A stretch of DNA of 64,000 bases from a virus. The DNA is taken from IMG/VR virus record IMGVR_UViG_3300028920_000003; one strand, 5' to 3'. This document shows positions 1 through 57,850 of the stretch, piece by piece (position 1 is the first letter of the stretch; each line of letters starts with the position of its first letter). The notes under the pieces were generated by a model. The model made no database searches, had not been told where the DNA came from, and was given only the letters and a program-made list of their open reading frames with translations. The translations under genes and the position numbers were made by a program.

Positions 1-242
1 ATGTGCTGCGCCACATCTCTCGCTTCTTCGGGCGTGAAAAAATTTACATTTTGATAGTCATCACTATCAAAGTAGTCTACTAAGATACGAACAAGATATT
101 TAAGAACCCTAAATTTCATATCATAGCATAAGAGGTCTGTTCTTCCAAGTCTCTGAGCATTAGCAAGATTATTGCCGTACTCTACGAATGCTGTTCTGAT
201 GTTATACAGATAAGCGTTTATTTCAGTAGGTGTAGCTGCCAT
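1..242 (-). CDS. hypothetical protein, N-terminal part only (gene runs off the left edge)
   Basis: Hand translation of the minus strand from ATG (complement of 240-242) stays open to position 1: MAATPTEINAYLYNIRTAFVEYGNN... Co-oriented with the gene train at 256-838. Missing from the ORF track because no stop lies in the window. Confidence 0.45.
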   Translation of the reverse strand, partial: MAATPTEINAYLYNIRTAFVEYGNNLANAQRLGRTDLLCYDMKFRVLKYLVRILVDYFDSDDYQNVNFFTPEEARDVAQH

Positions 243-47919: not shown

Positions 47920-48966
47920 ATGGCATTTACACCGTCTGAAAAAAGACTTACGAAAGAAAACATTCTTAAACACGTTGACAGCTATCAGTTATTTCAGGCA
48001 TACTGTAAGAACTTTTCAGCAATTGACAGAATGTTTAAGAGTGAATTTCGTAAAGATACCAGACCGTCGTGCCATATTATAATGTGGGAAGGAGACTTAC
48101 TTTACAAGGATTTCGGTGAACCACAAGGATATAGAGTATTTGATTATATTGCGAGAAAGTTTAATACAGATTTTCAGGGCGCACTTAGCATCATAAATCA
48201 GGACTTCGGTCTTGGTTTAGGTTCTTCTGCTTCCATCGGAGTCAATGCTTCAATGGAGACACCTGAGAAGGTACACTTCGATGTGAAGCAGTTTGAACGT
48301 CAACCTACCATTATAGAGATTGAACCTCGAAGATGGACTAAGCTTGACAGAGAGTATTGGGCGCAATATGAAATCCCTCCTCTACTACTTAAATACCATA
48401 AGATTTATTCGATAGCAAGCTACAGAATTGATAGCAGGTTTAAGGACAATGCTTTTTACCGTGTCAATCCTTATCAACTTGCTTATTCGTTTGAATACTA
48501 CTGGCACAAAGGAGTATTTAGGAGAAAGCTTTACTTTCCTCAGACAAAAGGAAGATATCGCTTTATAACCAATGTCAATAACACCATCGTACAAGGATGG
48601 ACTCTACTTCCTAAGAACAAACAGGATATTCTGTTCATAACCAAGTCTTATAAGGACATTTTGACCTTTAACATGCTTGGTTATTGGGCTATAGCTCCAA
48701 ACAATGAGCATTCGTTTATTCCGGAACAGGTAATGGAAAAGCTGAAAAAAAGATTCAGTAACATTTATGTCTGGTTTGATAACGATGAAGGTGGAATAGA
48801 TGGCGCAAAAGGTTTTGCAGAGAAGTTCAATTTACCATTTACCCACAATCCTGTTGGTGAACCGAAAGACCCTTCTGATTTTGTAAAAGAGTACAGCTCA
48901 AAAGAGTTTGATAAACTTGTAACACAGTTCCTTAAGAATGAAGGACATACAAATTACTGTTCCTAA
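47920..48966 (+). CDS. DNA primase (Toprim domain)
   Basis: 348 aa. VWFDNDEGGIDGA matches the Toprim DxD acidic cluster. The upstream ITKSYKD occupies the position of the Toprim Glu motif. Confidence 0.55.
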   Translation: MAFTPSEKRLTKENILKHVDSYQLFQAYCKNFSAIDRMFKSEFRKDTRPSCHIIMWEGDLLYKDFGEPQGYRVFDYIARKFNTDFQGALSIINQDFGLGLGSSASIGVNASMETPEKVHFDVKQFERQPTIIEIEPRRWTKLDREYWAQYEIPPLLLKYHKIYSIASYRIDSRFKDNAFYRVNPYQLAYSFEYYWHKGVFRRKLYFPQTKGRYRFITNVNNTIVQGWTLLPKNKQDILFITKSYKDILTFNMLGYWAIAPNNEHSFIPEQVMEKLKKRFSNIYVWFDNDEGGIDGAKGFAEKFNLPFTHNPVGEPKDPSDFVKEYSSKEFDKLVTQFLKNEGHTNYCS

Positions 48967-49438
48967 CTTTGAGTACAGGTATGTCATAGCGAAGAAGTCA
49001 AGGAAATCCGGAAGGATGAGATACTGGACCATCAATGGTCAAGGATTGTACAATGCTACAATGCATTACAGGTTAAGATCAAAAATTACTGAGTACTATC
49101 ACAGATATTTATCTAAGTACATCAAACAGCAGATTACTGACAAGCAAATCAAAGAGCTGAACAATCACATTTTTGTTGGCTCCTCCCACAAGTTATCCGT
49201 TTCATTAGATATTTACGAAGTACGTAGAGGCAAAATGCCTGACGTGAGTAATCTATGGCTATGGACGAAATGGTTTGAGGATGCTTTACAAGAGTCTAAT
49301 ATCATTCCGGACGACAATCCGGATTATGTACAGGAAAGCGGACGAACTCGTTATCACTTCATTGATAACAAGGAGGATCGTAAACTCGTTTTCAACTTGA
49401 AGTTAATAGATGTTCAAAACAAAAACATTCAATCATGA
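48938..49438 (+). CDS. rusA: RusA-like Holliday junction resolvase
   Basis: 166 aa. PDVSNLWLWTKWFEDALQESNIIPDDNPDYV parallels E. coli RusA [26 protein letters not shown] (D..N....DAL......DD..V). Confidence 0.55.
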   Translation: MKDIQITVPNFEYRYVIAKKSRKSGRMRYWTINGQGLYNATMHYRLRSKITEYYHRYLSKYIKQQITDKQIKELNNHIFVGSSHKLSVSLDIYEVRRGKMPDVSNLWLWTKWFEDALQESNIIPDDNPDYVQESGRTRYHFIDNKEDRKLVFNLKLIDVQNKNIQS

Positions 49439-50154
49439 GAGAAGTCGTAATAAAACTAACCTCGCAGAAGGATTTGATCAAGCATCAGTCCGATGCAAGA
49501 ACCTTTGGTGAACTCAAAAAAGAGATGCGCCAAGTCAAATGGTCCGGAATGAGGGTGGTGGAACGATCCACTAAAGCAACCCTTCAGATGGACGATGCAG
49601 TCCTTCCGCAAGGAGACTTTGTTCTGTTTCTTGTCCCTGAAAAGGTCAAGAGTGGACGTAAAACCGATGGTGGTGTCGAGAAGCTGGACGACATCAATGC
49701 AGCCAACTACAATGAACTGAGGAGTCACATGAGCTGGCTGAACAGGAACAAAGGTTGCAGCCTGAATATGCAGGGTGGTACTGAAGACCTTCGGAGAAGG
49801 TTGAAGGACTACTATCGTAGGCAGAAAAGCAAGCCTGCTACAAAAGCTGCTCCCAAACCAGCAGCCAAGAAAGCTGCTCCTGCAAAGAAAGCTGCTGTTC
49901 CTGAGAAAAAGAAGAAGAAAGGTCTCTTCGGAAAGAAGAAGGCTGATCCGAAACCTGTTGATCCTATCGAAATTATCGAAGGTGCAAGGGAGAGAATCAA
50001 CAAGGCTGTTGATGAAATCGTCCTGAATGCAATCAGCTCAGGTCAAGGTGTTCCGTCAATTCTGGAATACACTGCCGAAGAACTTGAGAAAGAGGCAAAG
50101 GAAATCCATCGGAAGCTTCGGACCAGCAGGAGTCAGGCAACGTATATCGACTGA
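49435..50154 (+). CDS. protein with N-terminal ubiquitin-like (beta-grasp-pattern) domain and Lys/Ala/Pro-rich histone-H1-like region
   Basis: 239 aa. Residues 1-70 show the hydrophobic pattern beta-beta-alpha-beta...beta (EVVIKLT / LIKHQS / TFGELKKEMRQ / MRVVER / DFVLFLVP). Gly-Gly sits at residues 79-80. KPATKAAPKPAAKKAAPAKKAAVPEKKKKKG follows. The fold assignment is inference only. Confidence 0.35.
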   Translation: MREVVIKLTSQKDLIKHQSDARTFGELKKEMRQVKWSGMRVVERSTKATLQMDDAVLPQGDFVLFLVPEKVKSGRKTDGGVEKLDDINAANYNELRSHMSWLNRNKGCSLNMQGGTEDLRRRLKDYYRRQKSKPATKAAPKPAAKKAAPAKKAAVPEKKKKKGLFGKKKADPKPVDPIEIIEGARERINKAVDEIVLNAISSGQGVPSILEYTAEELEKEAKEIHRKLRTSRSQATYID

Positions 50155-50178
50155 TACAATTTCTGTTCTAAATGTGGG

Positions 50179-50218
50179 AAGAAGGTGTAGAAGAGAAATC
50201 TTTTACACCTTCTTTTTT
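50179..50218 (+). terminator. rho-independent terminator
   Basis: GAAGGTGTA-14 nt-TACACCTTC followed by TTTTTT. It lies inside the N-terminal extension of the ORF-track call 50172-52235. Confidence 0.75.
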
Positions 50219-50231
50219 AAAATTGATAAAT

Positions 50232-52235
50232 ATGGAAGAGACTGAAAGAGAAGAATTCATGCGTCAGACTTCGGAGTCTATCAATGAGGCAGAAGCAGAA
50301 GCAGAAGCAGATGAAACCCAAAATACTTATGAGCCTCTTACTGTAGAAGCTCTGAGAGAAATCGTTAATGATTTAAGAAGTAATAATCCAACTCCAAATG
50401 ACGTTGTGACACATTATGAAACCACAGGAAACTTGGTTGTCGATACTGATAGTACAACAGGTATAACATACACGACAAGCAATAATTCCACAACCGGAAC
50501 AACGTATGTTTCTGTTCCTCCTACCACTGATCAAGTTACAGTGAATGTTGAGGGAACTCAAGTTCCACCAGCAGAACCTATACCTATTCCTGAAGAAAGA
50601 CGTAAGAAGATCAGAGAAGACAGGCTTAGAATGAAGTTGCATTTACAGAATGAGAGTCTTGAGTATAAGAGAAGCGTTTTTGCTAAAGAAATGGTCATTA
50701 CCAAAAATGATCTGATCATTTTAGCCGATCCCAATGCAGGTGAACACTGTTATAATTTCTTCCATTTTGATGTAGAAGGTGAGCATAAAGTAAAAGACTG
50801 TTTCTTACGATATCATAGTTATACTAGGCGAAGGAGAAGCGGAGACGAAAGTGTCTTTGTAGAAAATGCATTTGTTTTTGATAAAAACATGAAACGTCTT
50901 GTAGTTAACAGAGATGGGATAAGGAACAAAATATCAGGACAAGAGAAGATCAGGACTCGTAGAGATATGACAAGAATCTGGAATTATCAGATCAGTTATG
51001 CGTACAAGGAAAGAAAAAGAGATGTTGACTCAGACAGTTTTATCATAATTGATAAAGAAGAATTCATAAATTCCAGAGGTAGAAAATGGAAGCTTAAACG
51101 AAGGGAAAACTTAAGCTATTCTAATATCAAACTTGTCAGGCAGAAGTTCATCGAAAGGTTTATTGAGGTAGAACAGTTTGTGAAGAGACTTAATGAAATT
51201 GTCTCTAAAGCACTTCCTCCTGATGAGTTTGATATTTTCTATGTCTTTGGAAGGCCGAGTAACGATATTTTCAGCAGACTTACTAGTACCTATTGTTTGT
51301 TAATGAAATTCTCTAATGTCACTATCACAAATTCTATTGAAATGAAACATGAGATAGAAGAATTGATGGTAACTACTCAGGGTAATCATTATCAGGGAAT
51401 GGTACATAAAATGATTGGAGGTCTCAGTGGAATGAGAATGGCTTTTACTCCTGAAGATGCTCGTGCAAACTATCGACACTCTCATTTAACAAGCGGTCTT
51501 TCTAACTTCACAAGCTTCTGTACAGGAGGTGTGTCGTATAGTAGTATGGACAGAGAAGAACTAAATGAATTTGAAGTTCATGAGATAATCTTCAGAATCT
51601 ACAATTTTATACAATGGGAATCACTGGAAGGTGGTCCTCATTATAAAATGGAGAATATCAAAAATTTCGGAAGTCGTGTTACAATTGAGAAGAATATTAT
51701 AGGAAAAGATAGATATGTACCAGAAGAATATCTCACAGAATTGATTGGACATATCAACGCTACTCCCTTAAAATTCGCCTATTTTTCTGAATGCTTTTCT
51801 CTTACTAATCAAGGTGGAGTATTAAGGTTTGTTGTTGACTATGATAAGTTCTACGATAAATTCATAGAGCTTTTTGACAACAATACTATAAGAGATATAG
51901 GAAGAAGATACAGTTTGCCTTTGTACACTCGTAAGATGGAACTGAAAGAGTTTTATTCAGTCGGAAGTGAAACAGAACTCATACCTAGTTTAATTCTTGC
52001 AGATGCACAGGAGAAGCTAAAAAATCTTGTTCCTGTCTATTTGAACGGTAAATACGTCCGTCCTAGACTGACTAATTTCAATCCGACTTCTGCAATAGAA
52101 GGTATGAGATTTTGTCCTGAACCGAATATCATGAGAGAGATAGCACAGTACATATTATTCAAATTAACAGATAAACTTGAAGAACATGGGAACACCAGCG
52201 AAAGTAGAGAAGAGAGCCGAGTATCCGCTATATGA
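50232..52235 (+). CDS. large hypothetical protein, first gene of the JAB/E1 cassette
   Basis: Start moved to ATG 50232 (MEETEREEF...), downstream of the terminator. 667 aa with an acidic and Thr-rich N-terminus. No motif recognised. Confidence 0.5.
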   Translation: MEETEREEFMRQTSESINEAEAEAEADETQNTYEPLTVEALREIVNDLRSNNPTPNDVVTHYETTGNLVVDTDSTTGITYTTSNNSTTGTTYVSVPPTTDQVTVNVEGTQVPPAEPIPIPEERRKKIREDRLRMKLHLQNESLEYKRSVFAKEMVITKNDLIILADPNAGEHCYNFFHFDVEGEHKVKDCFLRYHSYTRRRRSGDESVFVENAFVFDKNMKRLVVNRDGIRNKISGQEKIRTRRDMTRIWNYQISYAYKERKRDVDSDSFIIIDKEEFINSRGRKWKLKRRENLSYSNIKLVRQKFIERFIEVEQFVKRLNEIVSKALPPDEFDIFYVFGRPSNDIFSRLTSTYCLLMKFSNVTITNSIEMKHEIEELMVTTQGNHYQGMVHKMIGGLSGMRMAFTPEDARANYRHSHLTSGLSNFTSFCTGGVSYSSMDREELNEFEVHEIIFRIYNFIQWESLEGGPHYKMENIKNFGSRVTIEKNIIGKDRYVPEEYLTELIGHINATPLKFAYFSECFSLTNQGGVLRFVVDYDKFYDKFIELFDNNTIRDIGRRYSLPLYTRKMELKEFYSVGSETELIPSLILADAQEKLKNLVPVYLNGKYVRPRLTNFNPTSAIEGMRFCPEPNIMREIAQYILFKLTDKLEEHGNTSESREESRVSAI

Positions 52236-52236
52236 A

Positions 52237-53373
52237 ATGGAGGAGAAAGGTAGTCTGATTCTACCACCTCATATCATATCGCAGATTACATTCCTTCATG
52301 CCCGATGTGGCAACACTGAATGGTCCGGAATGCTGCTTTATGATGTATTAAAGGGTAATCCTTCCAAACCCGAAGATTTCAAATTGGAAGCAAAACACAT
52401 CTTTCTAATGGACATTGGCACAGCAGGATCAACTAGTTATGAGACTGATGGTGATATTGTCGATCTGTTTGATGAGATTCCGGAAGCTATGGAAATGAAA
52501 TTAGGTCATATTCATACGCATCACAGTGGTAAAGCATATTTCTCAGGAGTTGATATGTCAGAACTTCAGGACAATGTAGATAAACATAACTACTACCTGT
52601 CTCTGGTTGTCAGTTTCGATGGAAATTATGCTGCTAAAGTAGTTTTCTTAAGTGATATGCATATCACATCCAAGATGAATTTCATCGACGATGCTGGTCA
52701 AACCAAGCATTTCAAGAAAGCTACTATGGAAAAACACATGGTCGTGATTAACATGAAGATCATGTATTCTGAGATGGGAGGATTTTTCTCTACTCGTCTG
52801 GATACTATTGTCAAGAAAGCTGACGCTGAGAAGAAGAAAGCTCAAGCTTGGAAGTATCCGGGATATCAGGGAGGATATAACCAACATCATACCAGTTGGA
52901 ACTCAGAAAAACAGCGTCATCTTCCTGCTCATCGTCCTATCAACAGCAAAATCATTCCTGATAAGATGACAAGCTGGGAAATCGAAGGTCTGACAAAGAA
53001 CATTCTGATGTTTGATACTGATCTGAAAACAGAAAGCAATGTATATAAGATTCTTCATGATATCGCTAACCAGATGAGTGATGATGAAACTGCTTCAGAC
53101 CTGTATTATGATTATCTTCTGAATCATATCGAGAAAGTGATTGATTCCTATTTCGATCAGCAACTGGAACCTGATGAGTATATCACCGTAATAAAAGAGG
53201 TGATAATGTGTATCAAAAAGTATGAGGGACTTCCTATACTTGCTGATGTAGTCAGGAATCTTGAAGAGACTTTCGATCATTTCATACTCGGATACGACAG
53301 TTCTGATGATGATAACGATGATGAGAAGAGTATTGCAGATCAACTTGAAAAGATGGAAAGGGAAATGAGATGA
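52237..53373 (+). CDS. JAB/MPN (JAMM) metalloprotease-domain protein
   Basis: Start placed at ATG 52237, 1 nt after the upstream stop (the ORF track starts at 52177). Exact JAMM motif H-T-H-HSGKAYF-S-GV-D (HxHx7SxxD, nt 52513-52554) with an upstream Glu in NTEWSG. The C-terminal ~230 aa are unassigned. Confidence 0.75.
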   Translation: MEEKGSLILPPHIISQITFLHARCGNTEWSGMLLYDVLKGNPSKPEDFKLEAKHIFLMDIGTAGSTSYETDGDIVDLFDEIPEAMEMKLGHIHTHHSGKAYFSGVDMSELQDNVDKHNYYLSLVVSFDGNYAAKVVFLSDMHITSKMNFIDDAGQTKHFKKATMEKHMVVINMKIMYSEMGGFFSTRLDTIVKKADAEKKKAQAWKYPGYQGGYNQHHTSWNSEKQRHLPAHRPINSKIIPDKMTSWEIEGLTKNILMFDTDLKTESNVYKILHDIANQMSDDETASDLYYDYLLNHIEKVIDSYFDQQLEPDEYITVIKEVIMCIKKYEGLPILADVVRNLEETFDHFILGYDSSDDDNDDEKSIADQLEKMEREMR

Positions 53374-54059
53374 TAGATGTGAAAAAATCAAGATTCCGTG
53401 ATGCTTCATGGTTTGAGAAGATGGATAAGTTCGTCATTCCTATCATTATCGGAGGTGCAGGTGGAATTGGTAGCTGGCTGACTTTATTTCTGTCAAGAAT
53501 GCTACCACCGTCCTCATACATCATACTATATGACTTCGATAAAGTTGAAGAAGTAAATATGGCTGGACAACTTTTCAGAATCGAAGATATTGGAAAGCTC
53601 AAAGTTACTGCTATGAGAGATATAGTAAAGGACTTTGCTGGATATGAGAGAATTACTATGATGCCTGACAGGTATGACAGTGAATCTCTCAAAAGTCCTG
53701 TCATGTTTTCATGCTTTGATAATATGGAAGCAAGAAAGGTGATGTTTGAGAACTGGTTAACAGAAGCTGAGAAATATCCTGATTCTATCTTTATTGATGG
53801 TAGGTTAAATGCAGAGCAGTTTCAGGTGTTTTATATAACTCTTGAGTGGGCGAAAGCCTATCAGGATAAACACCTGTTCAGTGATTCTGAAGTAGAAGAT
53901 ACAAATTGCTCCTACAAGCAGACTACTCACTTTGCAGCAGCTATCGCAGCAAAGATGGTTCAGGGTTTTACCGGATTTCTGGATGATACCTATGAACTTC
54001 CCTTCAAGTATGAAGAGATAGGTCCGTTGTTCTTTAATGAAATTGAGACTTATGGATGA
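53370..54059 (+). CDS. E1-like adenylyltransferase (ThiF/MoeB/Uba family), minimal 229-aa form
   Basis: IIIGGAGGIGSWL (Rossmann GxGxxG), LYDFDKVEEVNMAGQ (DxDxVxxxNxxxQ) and CFDNMEARKV (DN..R). Its ATG overlaps the JAB stop (ATGA). Confidence 0.8.
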   Translation: MIDVKKSRFRDASWFEKMDKFVIPIIIGGAGGIGSWLTLFLSRMLPPSSYIILYDFDKVEEVNMAGQLFRIEDIGKLKVTAMRDIVKDFAGYERITMMPDRYDSESLKSPVMFSCFDNMEARKVMFENWLTEAEKYPDSIFIDGRLNAEQFQVFYITLEWAKAYQDKHLFSDSEVEDTNCSYKQTTHFAAAIAAKMVQGFTGFLDDTYELPFKYEEIGPLFFNEIETYG

Positions 54060-54831
54060 TACTCGATATATTTCTGAATGGTACAGTGGTAAACCTTCTG
54101 GTAATGTAAAATTTCCTCTGAAGTTTGTACCTCATGATAGCTACTATCCTCTTATAGGTATACCTGTATTATATCTAGGTGAACACAATCCTTATTTTCA
54201 TAACATACACATCAAACGAGTTGATTGTCGTGTAAATAAACTAAGGATAGATTCATCTGGAAATTCGTTTATCTATAGAAAAGGAAGATCATGGTCAGGT
54301 CCTAAGTTGCAGATATATTCAGGTTATTACAGTGTGATAGGCTCTGCTAATAACTTTGAATATATGCCTTCTGATCTTTTCGGTAAAAAGAGAACATACC
54401 GTATGAAAGGAGAAGTAGACATATTTTGTTTAGGAGTAGTCAAACTATCGAAGCTACCTAATTTCAAGGTTAATTCAAGAAAAAGTTATTACAGATATTC
54501 TAGCACACAAGTTATGGACTTGACATTAAACCTGAAAGATGTAACGATTCTTGTTAATGAAGAAAAATTACGAAAAACTCTATTTACAAAAACAGTTTAT
54601 ACACCTACGGTTAGAAGAACTATATTGGATCAGATAAAGAGAGAGAAATCCTTACAAGTGAAAGATGTCTCAGACGAATATCTAAGATCGTTTATGCAAA
54701 GTCCTAATACTGTCAGGACTAACTCGTTTGTCGAAGCTATGACAATTGATCAAAAAATAAAAGACAGTGTATTTTCTAACCTAAACAGTGAATTTGCGAA
54801 TGTTCGACAAAATGAAAACGTTGACGGATAA
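54037..54831 (+). CDS. hypothetical protein downstream of the E1-like gene
   Basis: 264 aa. The alternative ATG at 54052 overlaps the E1 stop. Contains YYP..IP......HNP...........C (residues 36-64). No confident motif. Confidence 0.5.
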   Translation: MKLRLMDDTRYISEWYSGKPSGNVKFPLKFVPHDSYYPLIGIPVLYLGEHNPYFHNIHIKRVDCRVNKLRIDSSGNSFIYRKGRSWSGPKLQIYSGYYSVIGSANNFEYMPSDLFGKKRTYRMKGEVDIFCLGVVKLSKLPNFKVNSRKSYYRYSSTQVMDLTLNLKDVTILVNEEKLRKTLFTKTVYTPTVRRTILDQIKREKSLQVKDVSDEYLRSFMQSPNTVRTNSFVEAMTIDQKIKDSVFSNLNSEFANVRQNENVDG

Positions 54832-55900
54832 GGAGTATCGCTCCTTAGAACTCGTAAGTTATTCATCATTGTCTAAACTAGCAGTCTCACCACAGGCTTA
54901 CAAAGCAGACCAAGAATCAGAACGGAAGGAATCTCCCGAAATGGTTCTTGGTACTGTGGTGGACATGCTTCTTACTGACAAGAAAAGATTTGATGAAGAA
55001 GTTTACGTGATGACCGCTTCCAAACCCGGAAGCGAAATGATGTTAAGATACTGCGAAGTACTGGCTGACACCGGAGATAGCTCAATAGCCTATCTAAATT
55101 CCGGATTTAAGCTCAAGGCAGATGCAGTTGCGAATAAGTTTGATAAAGAAGGAAGAGATTACTACGACGCATTGATTGCAGCAAAAGGCAAAACTATTAT
55201 TAGCGCAGAAGGGATGTTCACAGCTAATCAACTTGTAGCACAACTTACTTCAAACCCATTTACAAAAGGATATTTCATAAATGATTCAGAAGACATTGAG
55301 CTTCTCTTTCAGGCTTCAATGGTGTGGGATGTCCAATTTGTTCCTATTGAGAGTGGTCAGGGAAATGTCAAATTGATGAGAGTCAAGAGCATGATTGACA
55401 TAGTTCACGTTGATCACAAGAAAGGAATAATTACTCCTATTGACCTGAAAACAGGAGGAGAAGGATTCATGAAATCCTATTGGAGATATAAGCGTTATCT
55501 TCAAGCTTCAATGTATACTGATGCATTGGTACATGTGGGATGGGATAATGATAGAATGAATCATTATGCTGTTGCTCCATTGAAATTTATCTATGCAGAC
55601 ACCAATCTTATCTATGCTCCTATGATTTATACATCTACACCTGTAGATATTGAAATCGGAAGGAACGGGCTAAATTATTTAGCTCCTGTCGCAGGATTGG
55701 CAAAGAGTTTCAACGATGGAGAAATCGCTCAGATTGACACAATTGGATTTGGACCAAGTGATTTAAGAAAAACTAAAGGATATTTACAATTGATTGCAGA
55801 ATTGGATTGGCATCAAAGAAATGATATGTGGGATTACACTTACGAAGATTATCTAAACGGAGGCGAGAAGCAGATTGATGCTTTCAGTGTAAAACTCTAA
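54812..55900 (+). CDS. PD-(D/E)XK nuclease (RecB/Cas4-like exonuclease)
   Basis: MIDIVHVD....PIDLKTG (D...D-x-K) followed by YLQASMY (the QxxxY of RecB-family nucleases). Start uncertain: GTG 54788, ATG 54800 or ATG 54812. Confidence 0.6.
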   Translation: MKTLTDKEYRSLELVSYSSLSKLAVSPQAYKADQESERKESPEMVLGTVVDMLLTDKKRFDEEVYVMTASKPGSEMMLRYCEVLADTGDSSIAYLNSGFKLKADAVANKFDKEGRDYYDALIAAKGKTIISAEGMFTANQLVAQLTSNPFTKGYFINDSEDIELLFQASMVWDVQFVPIESGQGNVKLMRVKSMIDIVHVDHKKGIITPIDLKTGGEGFMKSYWRYKRYLQASMYTDALVHVGWDNDRMNHYAVAPLKFIYADTNLIYAPMIYTSTPVDIEIGRNGLNYLAPVAGLAKSFNDGEIAQIDTIGFGPSDLRKTKGYLQLIAELDWHQRNDMWDYTYEDYLNGGEKQIDAFSVKL

Positions 55901-57046: not shown

Positions 57047-57850
57047 ATGCAAAATGAACAAGTTTATTGGGAAGCAAACAAGAGAATCGCTCTTGCTGCT
57101 CCTTTACCTGTAAGGACTTCCACATATAGTCCTGTTTCTCATGCTGAGATAATCGAAGCAATCAGAACTAATGCTCAAACCAACAACCTGAAAATTGTAC
57201 GTGACAGAATGTACACAAACAGGTTTGGTACGAGAGTTACCGGATTCTTTGATGTCGAAGATGCAACAGACTTTGGAAATGTCCACGGTCTGAAAATGAT
57301 GTTTGGCTACCGTAACAGCTACGACAAATCAATGAGCGTAGCCTTTGTAGCAGGAGCATCTGTGTTTATCTGCGGAAATGGAATGATCAGTGGTGATCTG
57401 ATGGCTTTCAAACGCAAACACACCGGAACCGTTGCAGAAGAATTGAATGAAAAAATTCAGGTCGGAGTAGACCGAATGAGAGATGATTTTGCAAAGCTCA
57501 ATTTGGAGGTGGATGTAATGAAGAACTATTCTCTTACACCACGCCAGAAAGCTGAAATTCTGGGAGTTATGTATTTCGAGAAGAACATGGTTACTCCCAC
57601 TCAGTTGAGTATTGTGAAAAACGAACTCACAAACAGCGAACATTTCAGGGAAGACAATGCTTGGTCCCTGTATAATAATGTAACGGAAGCTCTGAAAAAG
57701 AGTCATCCGATTGACATTATCAGAGATCATATCAAACTGCATGGATTCATGCAGGAGCTGGTAGGAATTGCTCCGGAAGAGGTGGGAGAAACTGTTGAAG
57801 CTGCACCCGAAGCAGAGACATCTGATGCACCACCCGAAACTGAAGGATAA
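57047..57850 (+). CDS. DUF932-like (phage/plasmid-like) protein
   Basis: 267 aa. GYRNSYDKSMSVAFVAGASVFICGNGMI resembles the NSHDGS....G...VC.NG core I recall for the DUF932 family. Assignment is from memory of the family. Confidence 0.45.
   Translation: MQNEQVYWEANKRIALAAPLPVRTSTYSPVSHAEIIEAIRTNAQTNNLKIVRDRMYTNRFGTRVTGFFDVEDATDFGNVHGLKMMFGYRNSYDKSMSVAFVAGASVFICGNGMISGDLMAFKRKHTGTVAEELNEKIQVGVDRMRDDFAKLNLEVDVMKNYSLTPRQKAEILGVMYFEKNMVTPTQLSIVKNELTNSEHFREDNAWSLYNNVTEALKKSHPIDIIRDHIKLHGFMQELVGIAPEEVGETVEAAPEAETSDAPPETEG

Follow-up and report, generated by a model that had tools for sequence, protein, structure and literature searches.

Conjugation of ubiquitin-like proteins (Ubls) among prokaryotes has lately been recognised as a weapon of the host against phages, as in the Bil, Bub and type II CBASS (antiphage signalling based on cyclic oligonucleotides) systems. 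In type I Bub (6E.1), the JAB domain of BubCD, a fusion of JAB and an E1 (activating) enzyme, cleaves the BubAB pre-protein, in which the Ubl is fused to an E2 (conjugating) enzyme, and thus exposes the terminal Gly (PMC11601596). Among phages, the TAPI Ubl of lambda and T1, which is fused through a linker and has a conserved C-terminal Gly, is predicted to be released by the JAB domain of gpK (Iyer 2006). Here, we describe a four-gene cassette in a 64,000-nucleotide (nt) stretch of viral DNA, IMG/VR record IMGVR_UViG_3300028920_000003 (hereafter the window), which encodes a Ubl precursor (pro-Ubl), an orphan protein termed Y, a JAB/MPN+ metallopeptidase and an E1-like adenylase within the replication module of a crAss-like phage. 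Based on sequence and structural models, we regard it as moderately probable that these four apparently co-transcribed genes constitute a phage-autonomous Ubl system for maturation and activation, and probably conjugation, of the modifier. An earlier note on this DNA had proposed, for the JAB-E1 pair, either a phage-run Ubl system acting on a candidate Ubl upstream or a counter-defence module; the former is favoured by the evidence reported below, and no direct support was obtained for the latter. None of the four outcomes named in that note as refuting its reading was observed.

In architecture, type I Bub is the closest parallel whose workings have been established. In both cases, JAB and a single-domain E1 are coupled physically or translationally, the Ubl is synthesised as part of a fusion pre-protein, and the BubCD JAB domain could be superimposed on the model of the window JAB over 143 columns, with a root-mean-square deviation (rmsd) of 3.8 Å and 19% identity. 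By contrast, Bub is bacterial, its E1 and E2 employ Tyr/Ser oxyesters and lack catalytic cysteines, and it includes BubE/DUF6527 and a UBC-fold E2, whereas the present system is phage-encoded, its JAB and E1 are separate proteins, an invariant Cys is found both in E1 and in Y, and neither a DUF6527 (PF20137) nor a UBC domain was detected in any cassette protein.

The archaeal SAMP/UbaA/HvJAMM1 (sampylation) and Thermus TtuB/TtuC/JAMM systems likewise combine a Ubl, a single E1 and a JAB protein in a minimal triad and have no recognised E2 or E3 (ligase); the archaeal SAMP/UbaA/JAMM1 triad illustrates that conjugation is possible without a recognisable E2. These systems are, however, cellular and dual-function (sulfur carrier and modifier), with Ubls ending in GG, whereas the phage system adds Y, carries K-[S/A]-G and always caps its Gly. 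A further likeness is to PRTRC (TIGR03734–03742), carried by plasmids and by integrative and conjugative elements, which is probably operon type 6d of Iyer 2006 (Ubl, JAB, E1, E2-like and helical protein). PRTRC_A was the nearest curated JAB family in NCBIfam, being matched by 23 of 40 members of the window JAB family (best E 0.0013, below the cut-off), and E1 matched PRTRC_ThiF with an E-value of 4.5e-8 and 32.7 bits against a cut-off of 144.75. Both proteins thus scored far below the curated cut-offs, and no ParB or PRTRC B, C, E or F model was matched. Since a tblastn search of E1 against 72,556 plasmids gave no match, this comparison is drawn from NCBIfam scores only; the function of PRTRC is itself unknown (PMC3318190).

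With Bil (BilABCD) and the Cap2/Cap3 pair of type II CBASS, the cassette shares E1 and JAB, the Ubl in the case of Bil, and the arena of phage-host conflict. Nevertheless, these are host defences and not phage genes. BilD comprises tandem adenylation domains plus a Cys domain (IAD-AAD-CYS) and BilB is a UBC-fold E2, while the window E1 is single-domain and no BilB match was found; Cap2 is an E2-E1 fusion acting on the CD-NTase (cGAS/DncV-like nucleotidyltransferase), and only its adenylation half resembles the window E1. TAPI and gpK resemble the present case in that a phage-encoded Ubl with a conserved Gly is joined to a second domain, with JAB as the predicted releasing peptidase. They differ in having no E1, in belonging to a tail module and in the fusion of the gpK JAB to NlpC/P60, whereas here the genes lie in a replication arm, the JAB C-terminus is helical, and E1 and Y are present.

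The linkage of the four genes was strict. In 85 related phage loci, made up of loci from phage records and 80 loci fetched from IMG/VR with a JAB profile, with all open reading frames (ORFs) being searched, the JAB-E1 pair was co-conserved, and the cassette was found as Ubl, Y, JAB and E1, in that order and on one strand, with members missing only at contig ends. Y, a fourth obligatory gene, had not been recognised in the earlier note. Profiles detected both Y and the Ubl domain in 83 of the 85 loci, the two misses being loci cut just before JAB, while single-sequence searches recovered E1 in 79, the remaining six being contig ends. In the window, the Y and JAB frames overlap by 50 nt, and the JAB stop (TGA, 53371–53373) overlaps the E1 start (ATG, 53370–53372) in the ATGA that had already been described. 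Y/JAB overlaps of similar size were observed in most related loci. The coordinates of all features are compiled in Table 1.

Table 1. Features of the cassette and its surroundings in the window, and related loci with a stand-alone Ubl
Feature	Position	Strand	Remarks
RusA-like resolvase gene	48938–49438	+	overlaps Ubl start (49435) by 4 nt
pro-Ubl fusion protein	49435–50154	+	239 amino acids (aa)
Ubl beta-grasp domain (predicted)	residues 1–74, 49435–49656	+	ends ...LFLVPEKVKSG
Ubl G74	49654–49656	+	invariant
pro-Ubl, two helices	residues ~92–132		SAP-like in some relatives
pro-Ubl, Lys/Ala/Pro-rich, histone-H1-like low-complexity tract	residues ~133–176, 49831–49962		KPATKAAPKPAAKKAAPAKKAAVPEKKKKKG
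pro-Ubl, conserved helical C-terminal domain	residues 177–239
Y, orphan protein	50172–52235	+	687 aa; always between Ubl and JAB genes
Y, N-terminal ~330 residues	50172–51160		lineage-specific extension absent from most relatives
Y, conserved ~140-aa core	residues ~370–510, 51279–51701	+
Y C450	51519–51521	+	invariant
JAB/MPN+ (JAMM) metallopeptidase	52186–53373	+	395 aa from probable start; 378 aa from 52237
JAB domain	residues 1–180 (numbered from 52237)	+
JAB motif residues	E28 52318–52320; H93 52513–52515; H95 52519–52521; S103 52543–52545; D106 52552–52554	+
JAB, family-specific helical C-terminal domain	residues ~240–378 (numbered from 52237)		AlphaFold2 (AF2) model
Single-domain E1-like (ThiF-superfamily) adenylase	53370–54059	+	229 aa; Pfam ThiF
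E1 Gly-rich loop	residues 28–35, 53451–53474	+	GGAGGIGS
E1 C180	53907–53909	+	invariant
Z, gene after E1	54037–54831	+	position occupied in 72/79 loci
DUF932 protein	57047–57850		Pfam 43.5 bits vs cut-off 23
Stand-alone Ubl loci (n=20)			L018, L020–L023, L025, L028, L030, L042, L049, L050, L052, L054–L058, L064, L078, L082

By tblastn, E1 was detected in 79 phage records and JAB in 74, all of the latter being crAss-like Bacteroides phages (crAss001, DAC15, PhiCrAssBcn and cr* genomes) or Flavobacterium FpV4-like phages. Five phage records, four from Xanthomonas and one from Erwinia, matched E1 and not JAB, perhaps owing to an unrelated gene of the ThiF type or to a different arrangement. In crAss001, the block reads primase gp80, gp79, gp78, gp77 ('metalloprotease'), gp76 ('ThiF'), gp75 and uracil-DNA glycosylase (UDG), with gp79–gp76 representing the cassette, and the same layout is present in FpV4, DAC15, bajarodcaudo virus and cr128_1. 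Outside phage records, a JAB-pattern scan of one genome per species across 185,579 prokaryotic species revealed just three contigs of metagenome-assembled genomes that carry the cassette. Cassette-bearing contigs deposited under Asgard archaea (Promethearchaeia, Heimdallarchaeaceae) include L086 (JAZGEW010000157.1), one of the three, and are also represented by proteins P0077, P0290 and P0298. Because L086, binned as Promethearchaeia, holds the crAss-like replication module in full, from primase through Ubl, Y, JAB and E1 to exonuclease, it is probably mis-binned phage DNA from sediment; alternatively, it may be DNA of an Asgard-associated virus.

With regard to the modifier, the gene two places upstream of the JAB gene had been put forward as a candidate Ubl, and its N-terminus is indeed predicted to adopt a ubiquitin-like beta-grasp fold. 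The AF2 model showed a strand-strand-helix-strand-strand order with a predicted local distance difference test (pLDDT) value of ~90 over residues 1–68, the confidence falling at 73–76. Foldseek matched residues 1–75 to ubiquitin, ISG15, DWNN, DIX, BfUbb (the Bacteroides fragilis ubiquitin) and TtuB in the PDB, over 73–80 columns with an rmsd of 2.1–3.0 Å and template modelling (TM) scores of 0.6–0.7 on target length; the values for ubiquitin itself were 73–76 columns, 2.1–2.4 Å and 0.65–0.70, and the MoaD-like protein Mth1743 was also among the matches. P68, K70, K72 and G74 were invariant in the Ubl alignment. The candidate thus proved to be real and strictly linked to the pair, while its proposed end, a GG at residues 79–80, was rejected, as it is G74 and not the GG that is conserved.

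The Gly of the K-x-K-[S/A]-G motif was kept in 83 of 83 Ubl genes and was never the last residue. Given this invariable cap, a peptidase is needed to expose the Gly, a task that would fall to JAB; capped terminal Gly residues are also found in the precursors of ubiquitin, NEDD8 and SUMO. A stand-alone ORF of 75–106 aa encodes the Ubl in 20 loci and stops one to three residues past the Gly (KSGK, KSGE, KSGF, AAGH, KSGR, KSGTSI and KSGVNA, each followed by the stop codon), while the remaining Ubl genes encode C-terminal extensions of ~20–290 residues, 165 in the window. All 20 split loci contain an ORF of 32–131 aa which fills the gap between Ubl and Y and starts at the Ubl stop (in several loci) or within a few dozen bases. 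In L020–L023, this ORF and the extension found in fused Ubl proteins are homologues, from which it follows that the Ubl and the downstream small protein stand in a fusion/fission relationship. Eukaryotic ubiquitin is also made fused to ribosomal proteins. Directly after the Ubl domain, a sub-threshold SAP (PF02037) match was present in four out of ten relatives (best 20.8 bits vs 23.9), and the C-terminal part of the precursor, once released, is possibly DNA-binding.

As for the peptidase, the translation of ORF 52237–53373 holds GHIHTHHSGKAYFSGVDMSE (also given as GHIHTHHSGKAYFSGVD), that is, H93-x-H95-x7-S103-x2-D106 with E28 upstream. The JAMM motif previously read in this ORF was present, and since E28, H93, H95, S103 and D106 were invariant in an alignment of 40 family members that are 24–72% identical to the window protein, it is not a chance occurrence. 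The JAB identity of the ORF was therefore retained, whereas its start was revised from 52237 to an ATG 17 codons upstream, at 52186, as the most likely initiation site: the identical database protein P0001 has 395 aa, independent gene calls on four contigs also start at 52186, and the N-termini of homologues align over the 17 extra residues (MGTPAKVEKRAEYPLYE). By sequence, the protein is a divergent member of its superfamily, with 14.9 bits against Pfam Prok-JAB (PF14464; gathering cut-off, 25). This model was matched by 39 of the 40 family members at E ≤ 1 (best 3e-6), and the NCBIfam 'desampylase' model weakly by 10 of them (best E 0.0062). The family profile found no JAB match among PDB sequences, so that a fold search was needed. 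The AF2 model (mean pLDDT 85.8) matched Rpn11, CSN5, AMSH, Npl4, PfJAMM1 (Pyrococcus JAMM1) and the Citrobacter BubCD JAB domain in the PDB at E ~1e-6, with a probability of 1.0 for Rpn11, CSN5, AMSH, PfJAMM1 and BubCD, and a crAss-like 'MPN family protein' in BFVD at an E-value of 5e-24. A RadC-like or siphovirus/lambda gpK-like JAB was rejected, such proteins ranking far behind the deubiquitinase-type matches Rpn11, CSN5, AMSH, PfJAMM1 and BubCD and the crAss-like MPN proteins. By motif and fold, this is a catalytically intact JAB/MPN+ metallopeptidase, for which (iso)peptidase activity is predicted.

The 229-aa protein encoded downstream contains GGAGGIGS, DFDKVEEVNMAGQ and FDNMEAR, the three ThiF/MoeB/Uba signatures that had been claimed for it, and passed the gathering cut-off of Pfam ThiF (PF00899; 51.4 vs 28.1 bits, E = 1e-13); against phrog_15670 it scored 184 bits. 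D57, N63, Q67, K78, D117, R122, D143, R145 and C180 were invariant in 41 sequences, in which R8 and the Gly-rich loop were nearly so and D117-N118 invariant or nearly so; its active site is thus intact. Its description as unusually short did not hold, as the NCBIfam ThiF 'family 2' profiles span 200–215 positions. No E2 fusion was recognisable, in agreement with the previous reading, E1 being a single domain. Searched against the PDB, in alignments that cover the N-terminal Rossmann half only, the E1 profile matched UBA5 (5.6e-13), MccB (2e-12), ThiF (7e-12), PaaA and TcdA (5e-11), followed by UBA1/UBA6 (~1e-10), MoeB (3e-9) and Cap2 (4e-6). All NCBIfam equivalog matches were below the cut-off, with the ThiF 'family 2' models being the best (PRK08644, 58.9 vs 159 bits; thiF_fam2, 53.3 vs 152.2 bits) and moeB reaching 22.1 vs 376.6 bits; a TcdA model was absent from the match list. 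Since E1 is about equidistant from UBA5, ThiF, MccB and TcdA and falls far below the equivalog cut-offs, it represents by sequence a distinct E1 lineage, and its interpretation as a metabolic ThiF, MoeB or TcdA encoded by an auxiliary metabolic gene was rejected. In Steigviridae-type crassviruses (L002, crAss001; L003, DAC15; L005, cr128_1), E1 has 320–383 aa, with an extra N-terminal part of ~100–150 residues which the window protein lacks.

The presence of MccB and PaaA among the best profile matches of E1 bears on a different explanation, namely processing without conjugation, in which the Ubl would be a removable chaperone or solubility pro-domain, as in ubiquitin-ribosomal-protein fusions or lambda TAPI/gpK, and E1 would perform another adenylation chemistry, such as an MccB/PaaA-like peptide modification or cyclisation. 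The fusion/fission of the Ubl with the downstream small protein would suit this explanation, and there is a phage precedent for Ubl plus JAB without E1 (Iyer 2006, row 5). Nonetheless, the 20 relatives in which the cap is reduced to one to three residues, and in which there is therefore no cargo to chaperone, keep JAB and E1; the Rossmann fold of the window E1 begins at residue ~20, so that the peptide clamp found at the N-terminus of MccB and PaaA is lacking; and strict linkage of an E1 to a beta-grasp protein with a terminal Gly is the hallmark of Ubl activation. We consider this explanation decidedly unlikely.

The most serious rival to a modifier system is a sulfur-carrier pathway, which we nevertheless judge to be unlikely. 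Here, a ThiS/MoaD/TtuB/QbsE-type Ubl would be trimmed by JAB, in the manner of QbsD and Mec+, and adenylated by E1, its thiocarboxylate would serve to thiolate either a base in nucleic acid or some small molecule, and Y, which has an invariant Cys, would be the sulfurtransferase or final enzyme. JAB-trimmed carriers are established biology (Iyer 2006, rows 4a–4e), and the cassette lies among genes of nucleotide and DNA metabolism. The ThiF 'family 2' models as best NCBIfam matches of E1, TtuB and Mth1743 among the structural matches of the Ubl, and the lack of a recognisable E2 would also be in keeping with a carrier. On the other hand, E1 is no closer to ThiF/MoeB than to UBA5/UBA1, and neither a rhodanese, a cysteine desulfurase or a PP-loop enzyme nor a thiamine or molybdenum cofactor gene was found among the ten neighbours scanned. 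Furthermore, ThiS and MoaD end in GG, unlike the K-[S/A]-G of the phage Ubls, whose top structural matches are modifiers of the ubiquitin type, and the extensions fused to the Ubl look DNA-binding or helical rather than like enzymes of sulfur metabolism.

Protein Y gave no match to Pfam, NCBIfam or PADLOC models (alignments of 42 and 63 members), which includes Pfam UQ_con and Prok-E2, the PADLOC E2 and the PRTRC models, and profiles from the two alignments found nothing among PDB sequences. Nevertheless, its family comprises 936 cluster representatives among 1.84 billion proteins. Members range from ~300 to 720 aa, most having ~400 aa, and share an HSH...C...ES core with N387, H436-S437-H438, C450, G452, E483-S484, G487 and P489 invariant. 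Within the N-terminal extension of the window protein, one stretch is acidic (EAEAEAEADE) and another is of low complexity and rich in Thr, Ser and Asn. The order of motifs in Y (hydrophobic-FP ... Y-x-HSH ... FC-L-G ... WES..GGP) loosely resembles that of UBC proteins (FP ... YHPN ... C-L ... WSP). If the cassette includes an E2-like transfer enzyme or a specificity factor, Y is the likeliest to fill that part.

Taken together, these features suggest how a phage-autonomous Ubl system might operate. The Ubl would be made as a precursor whose reactive G74 (...KVKSG) is masked by what follows it, 165 residues in this phage and down to a single one in relatives. JAB would cut after G74, thereby freeing the Ubl and, in this phage, a C-terminal protein that probably binds DNA. 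E1 would then adenylate the exposed G74 with ATP and may hold the Ubl on C180. The Ubl would next be handed to one or more acceptors, with Y most likely as the relay or as the recipient, and the modification may in turn be undone by JAB. As judged by gene position, phage proteins of DNA replication and repair, or a host protein, are plausible targets. In a stronger version, crAss-like phages would run a complete Ubl conjugation of their own, in which the pro-Ubl, often fused to a protein that binds DNA, is matured by JAB, activated by the minimal E1 and transferred by Y to proteins of replication, of repair or of the host in order to control the infection cycle; Y would then represent a class of Cys/His enzymes for Ubl transfer that has so far escaped recognition. 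We put this version forward tentatively, and the chances are somewhat against it.

Several observations weigh against an autonomous Ubl system. The Ubl identity comes from a predicted model only, with modest Foldseek E-values (8e-4 to 1e-2); none of 41 Ubl members matched a ubiquitin, ThiS, MoaD or prokaryotic-Ub Pfam model at E ≤ 1, hhalign gave a probability of 0.4% between the Ubl family and ubiquitin, and the Ubl ends in a single Gly (K-S-G), not in GG. In E1, the nearly invariant Gly66 aligns with the Arg of the N-M-N-R (N-x-x-R) motif of UBA5, for which reason its ATP handling may differ. C180 lies 63 residues after D117, a spacing similar to that of ThiF C184, MoeB C187 and UBA5 C250; as the surrounding region did not align to any solved E1, spacing is the sole basis on which C180 may be the equivalent of their crossover-loop cysteine. 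Lastly, no E2, E3 or other known transfer enzyme was recognisable in the cassette: for Y, no relative of known function could be detected, and its hhalign probability with UbcH5 was 0.7%, which is at chance level.

The genomic setting agrees with the earlier placement of the JAB-E1 pair in a replication arm. The terminase large subunit of the window is ~32% identical to crAss-like phage terminases. The minus strand of the first 33 kb (1–33 kb) carries large, mainly structural ORFs, the terminase gene being confirmed among them, while the plus-strand arm encodes an ATPase, a primase, a RusA-like resolvase, a PD-(D/E)XK exonuclease, a DUF932 protein and UDG. The cassette is situated on this plus strand, opposite to the structural genes, between primase and exonuclease. 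Blastn of a 7.3-kb region against 50,697 phage records gave no match, and relatives were retrieved only by protein-level searches. The terminase identity, the crAss-type replication arm and the lack of a DNA-level relative in the phage collection identify the source as a distant, uncultured crAss-like phage. The genes from primase to exonuclease (47920–55900) are tightly packed, with overlaps or gaps of ≤17 nt, which suggests a single transcription unit; scans for sigma-70 promoters and terminators over 45.5–59 kb gave counts equal to those of shuffled controls and were uninformative.

This setting is also relevant to counter-defence, according to which JAB, with E1 and the Ubl perhaps serving as decoys or competitors, would strip host Bil-type Ubl marks or undo Cap2-type CBASS priming. 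Phage structural proteins are indeed among the targets of host Ubl systems, and marks of this kind can be undone by JAB peptidases (PMC11601596). E1 weakly matched PADLOC models of Cap2-type E1-E2 proteins and BilD (E 1e-5 to 3e-4, with BilD at 17.5 bits and 3.3e-4), and the gene that follows E1 is fast-evolving, a frequent trait of conflict genes. However, a lone deconjugase would not need a capped Ubl, an E1 and a Y of its own in every genome, and the cassette resides beside the primase in a conserved replication module instead of a variable accessory island. The PADLOC scores, of 12–22 bits, reflect generic E1-superfamily similarity, and specificity for a host Ubl cannot be read from sequence. 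Neither a CD-NTase nor an effector was found among seven neighbours, as stated before. As the main task of JAB, we regard counter-defence as very unlikely, although deconjugation of host marks is possible as an extra activity.

Regarding the genes nearby, three sequence clusters were distinguished at the position of Z, with 45 loci, seven (the window type) and four (the crAss001 type), and inter-cluster hhalign probabilities of 50–57%; the gene at this position evolves fast. The C-terminal half of Z showed a weak AbiEii-like PADLOC match (E 2.2e-4). Homologues of the DUF932 protein, whose family is common on plasmids and conjugative elements, were present in just seven of the 85 related loci.

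Parts of the cassette had been labelled before. The supplementary maps of Yutin et al. 2021 and GenBank records show 'ThiF family' and 'MPN, metalloprotease' beside three 'uncharacterized' genes; GenBank labels also read 'thiamine biosynthesis protein' and 'metalloprotease', and the automatic BFVD names are 'MPN family protein' and '26S proteasome regulatory subunit'. In the literature searched, no paper linked crAss-like phages with ThiF, JAB or a Ubl system, and no account was found of the Ubl, the four-gene unit or any function. While the domains are of known kinds, novelty lies in the four-gene unit in phages, in the K-S-G Ubl, which is capped and has a partner by fusion/fission, and in the family of Y.

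If an autonomous Ubl system is indeed encoded by these phages, bacterial viruses, including the cultured gut crassviruses crAss001 and DAC15 and the Flavobacterium FpV4-like phages, would also make use of Ubl chemistry. The four proteins of the cassette are tractable, the predicted cleavage site is defined (after K-S-G), and the mass tag by which targets could be discovered is predictable; the orphan family of Y may represent a new kind of Ubl-handling enzyme.

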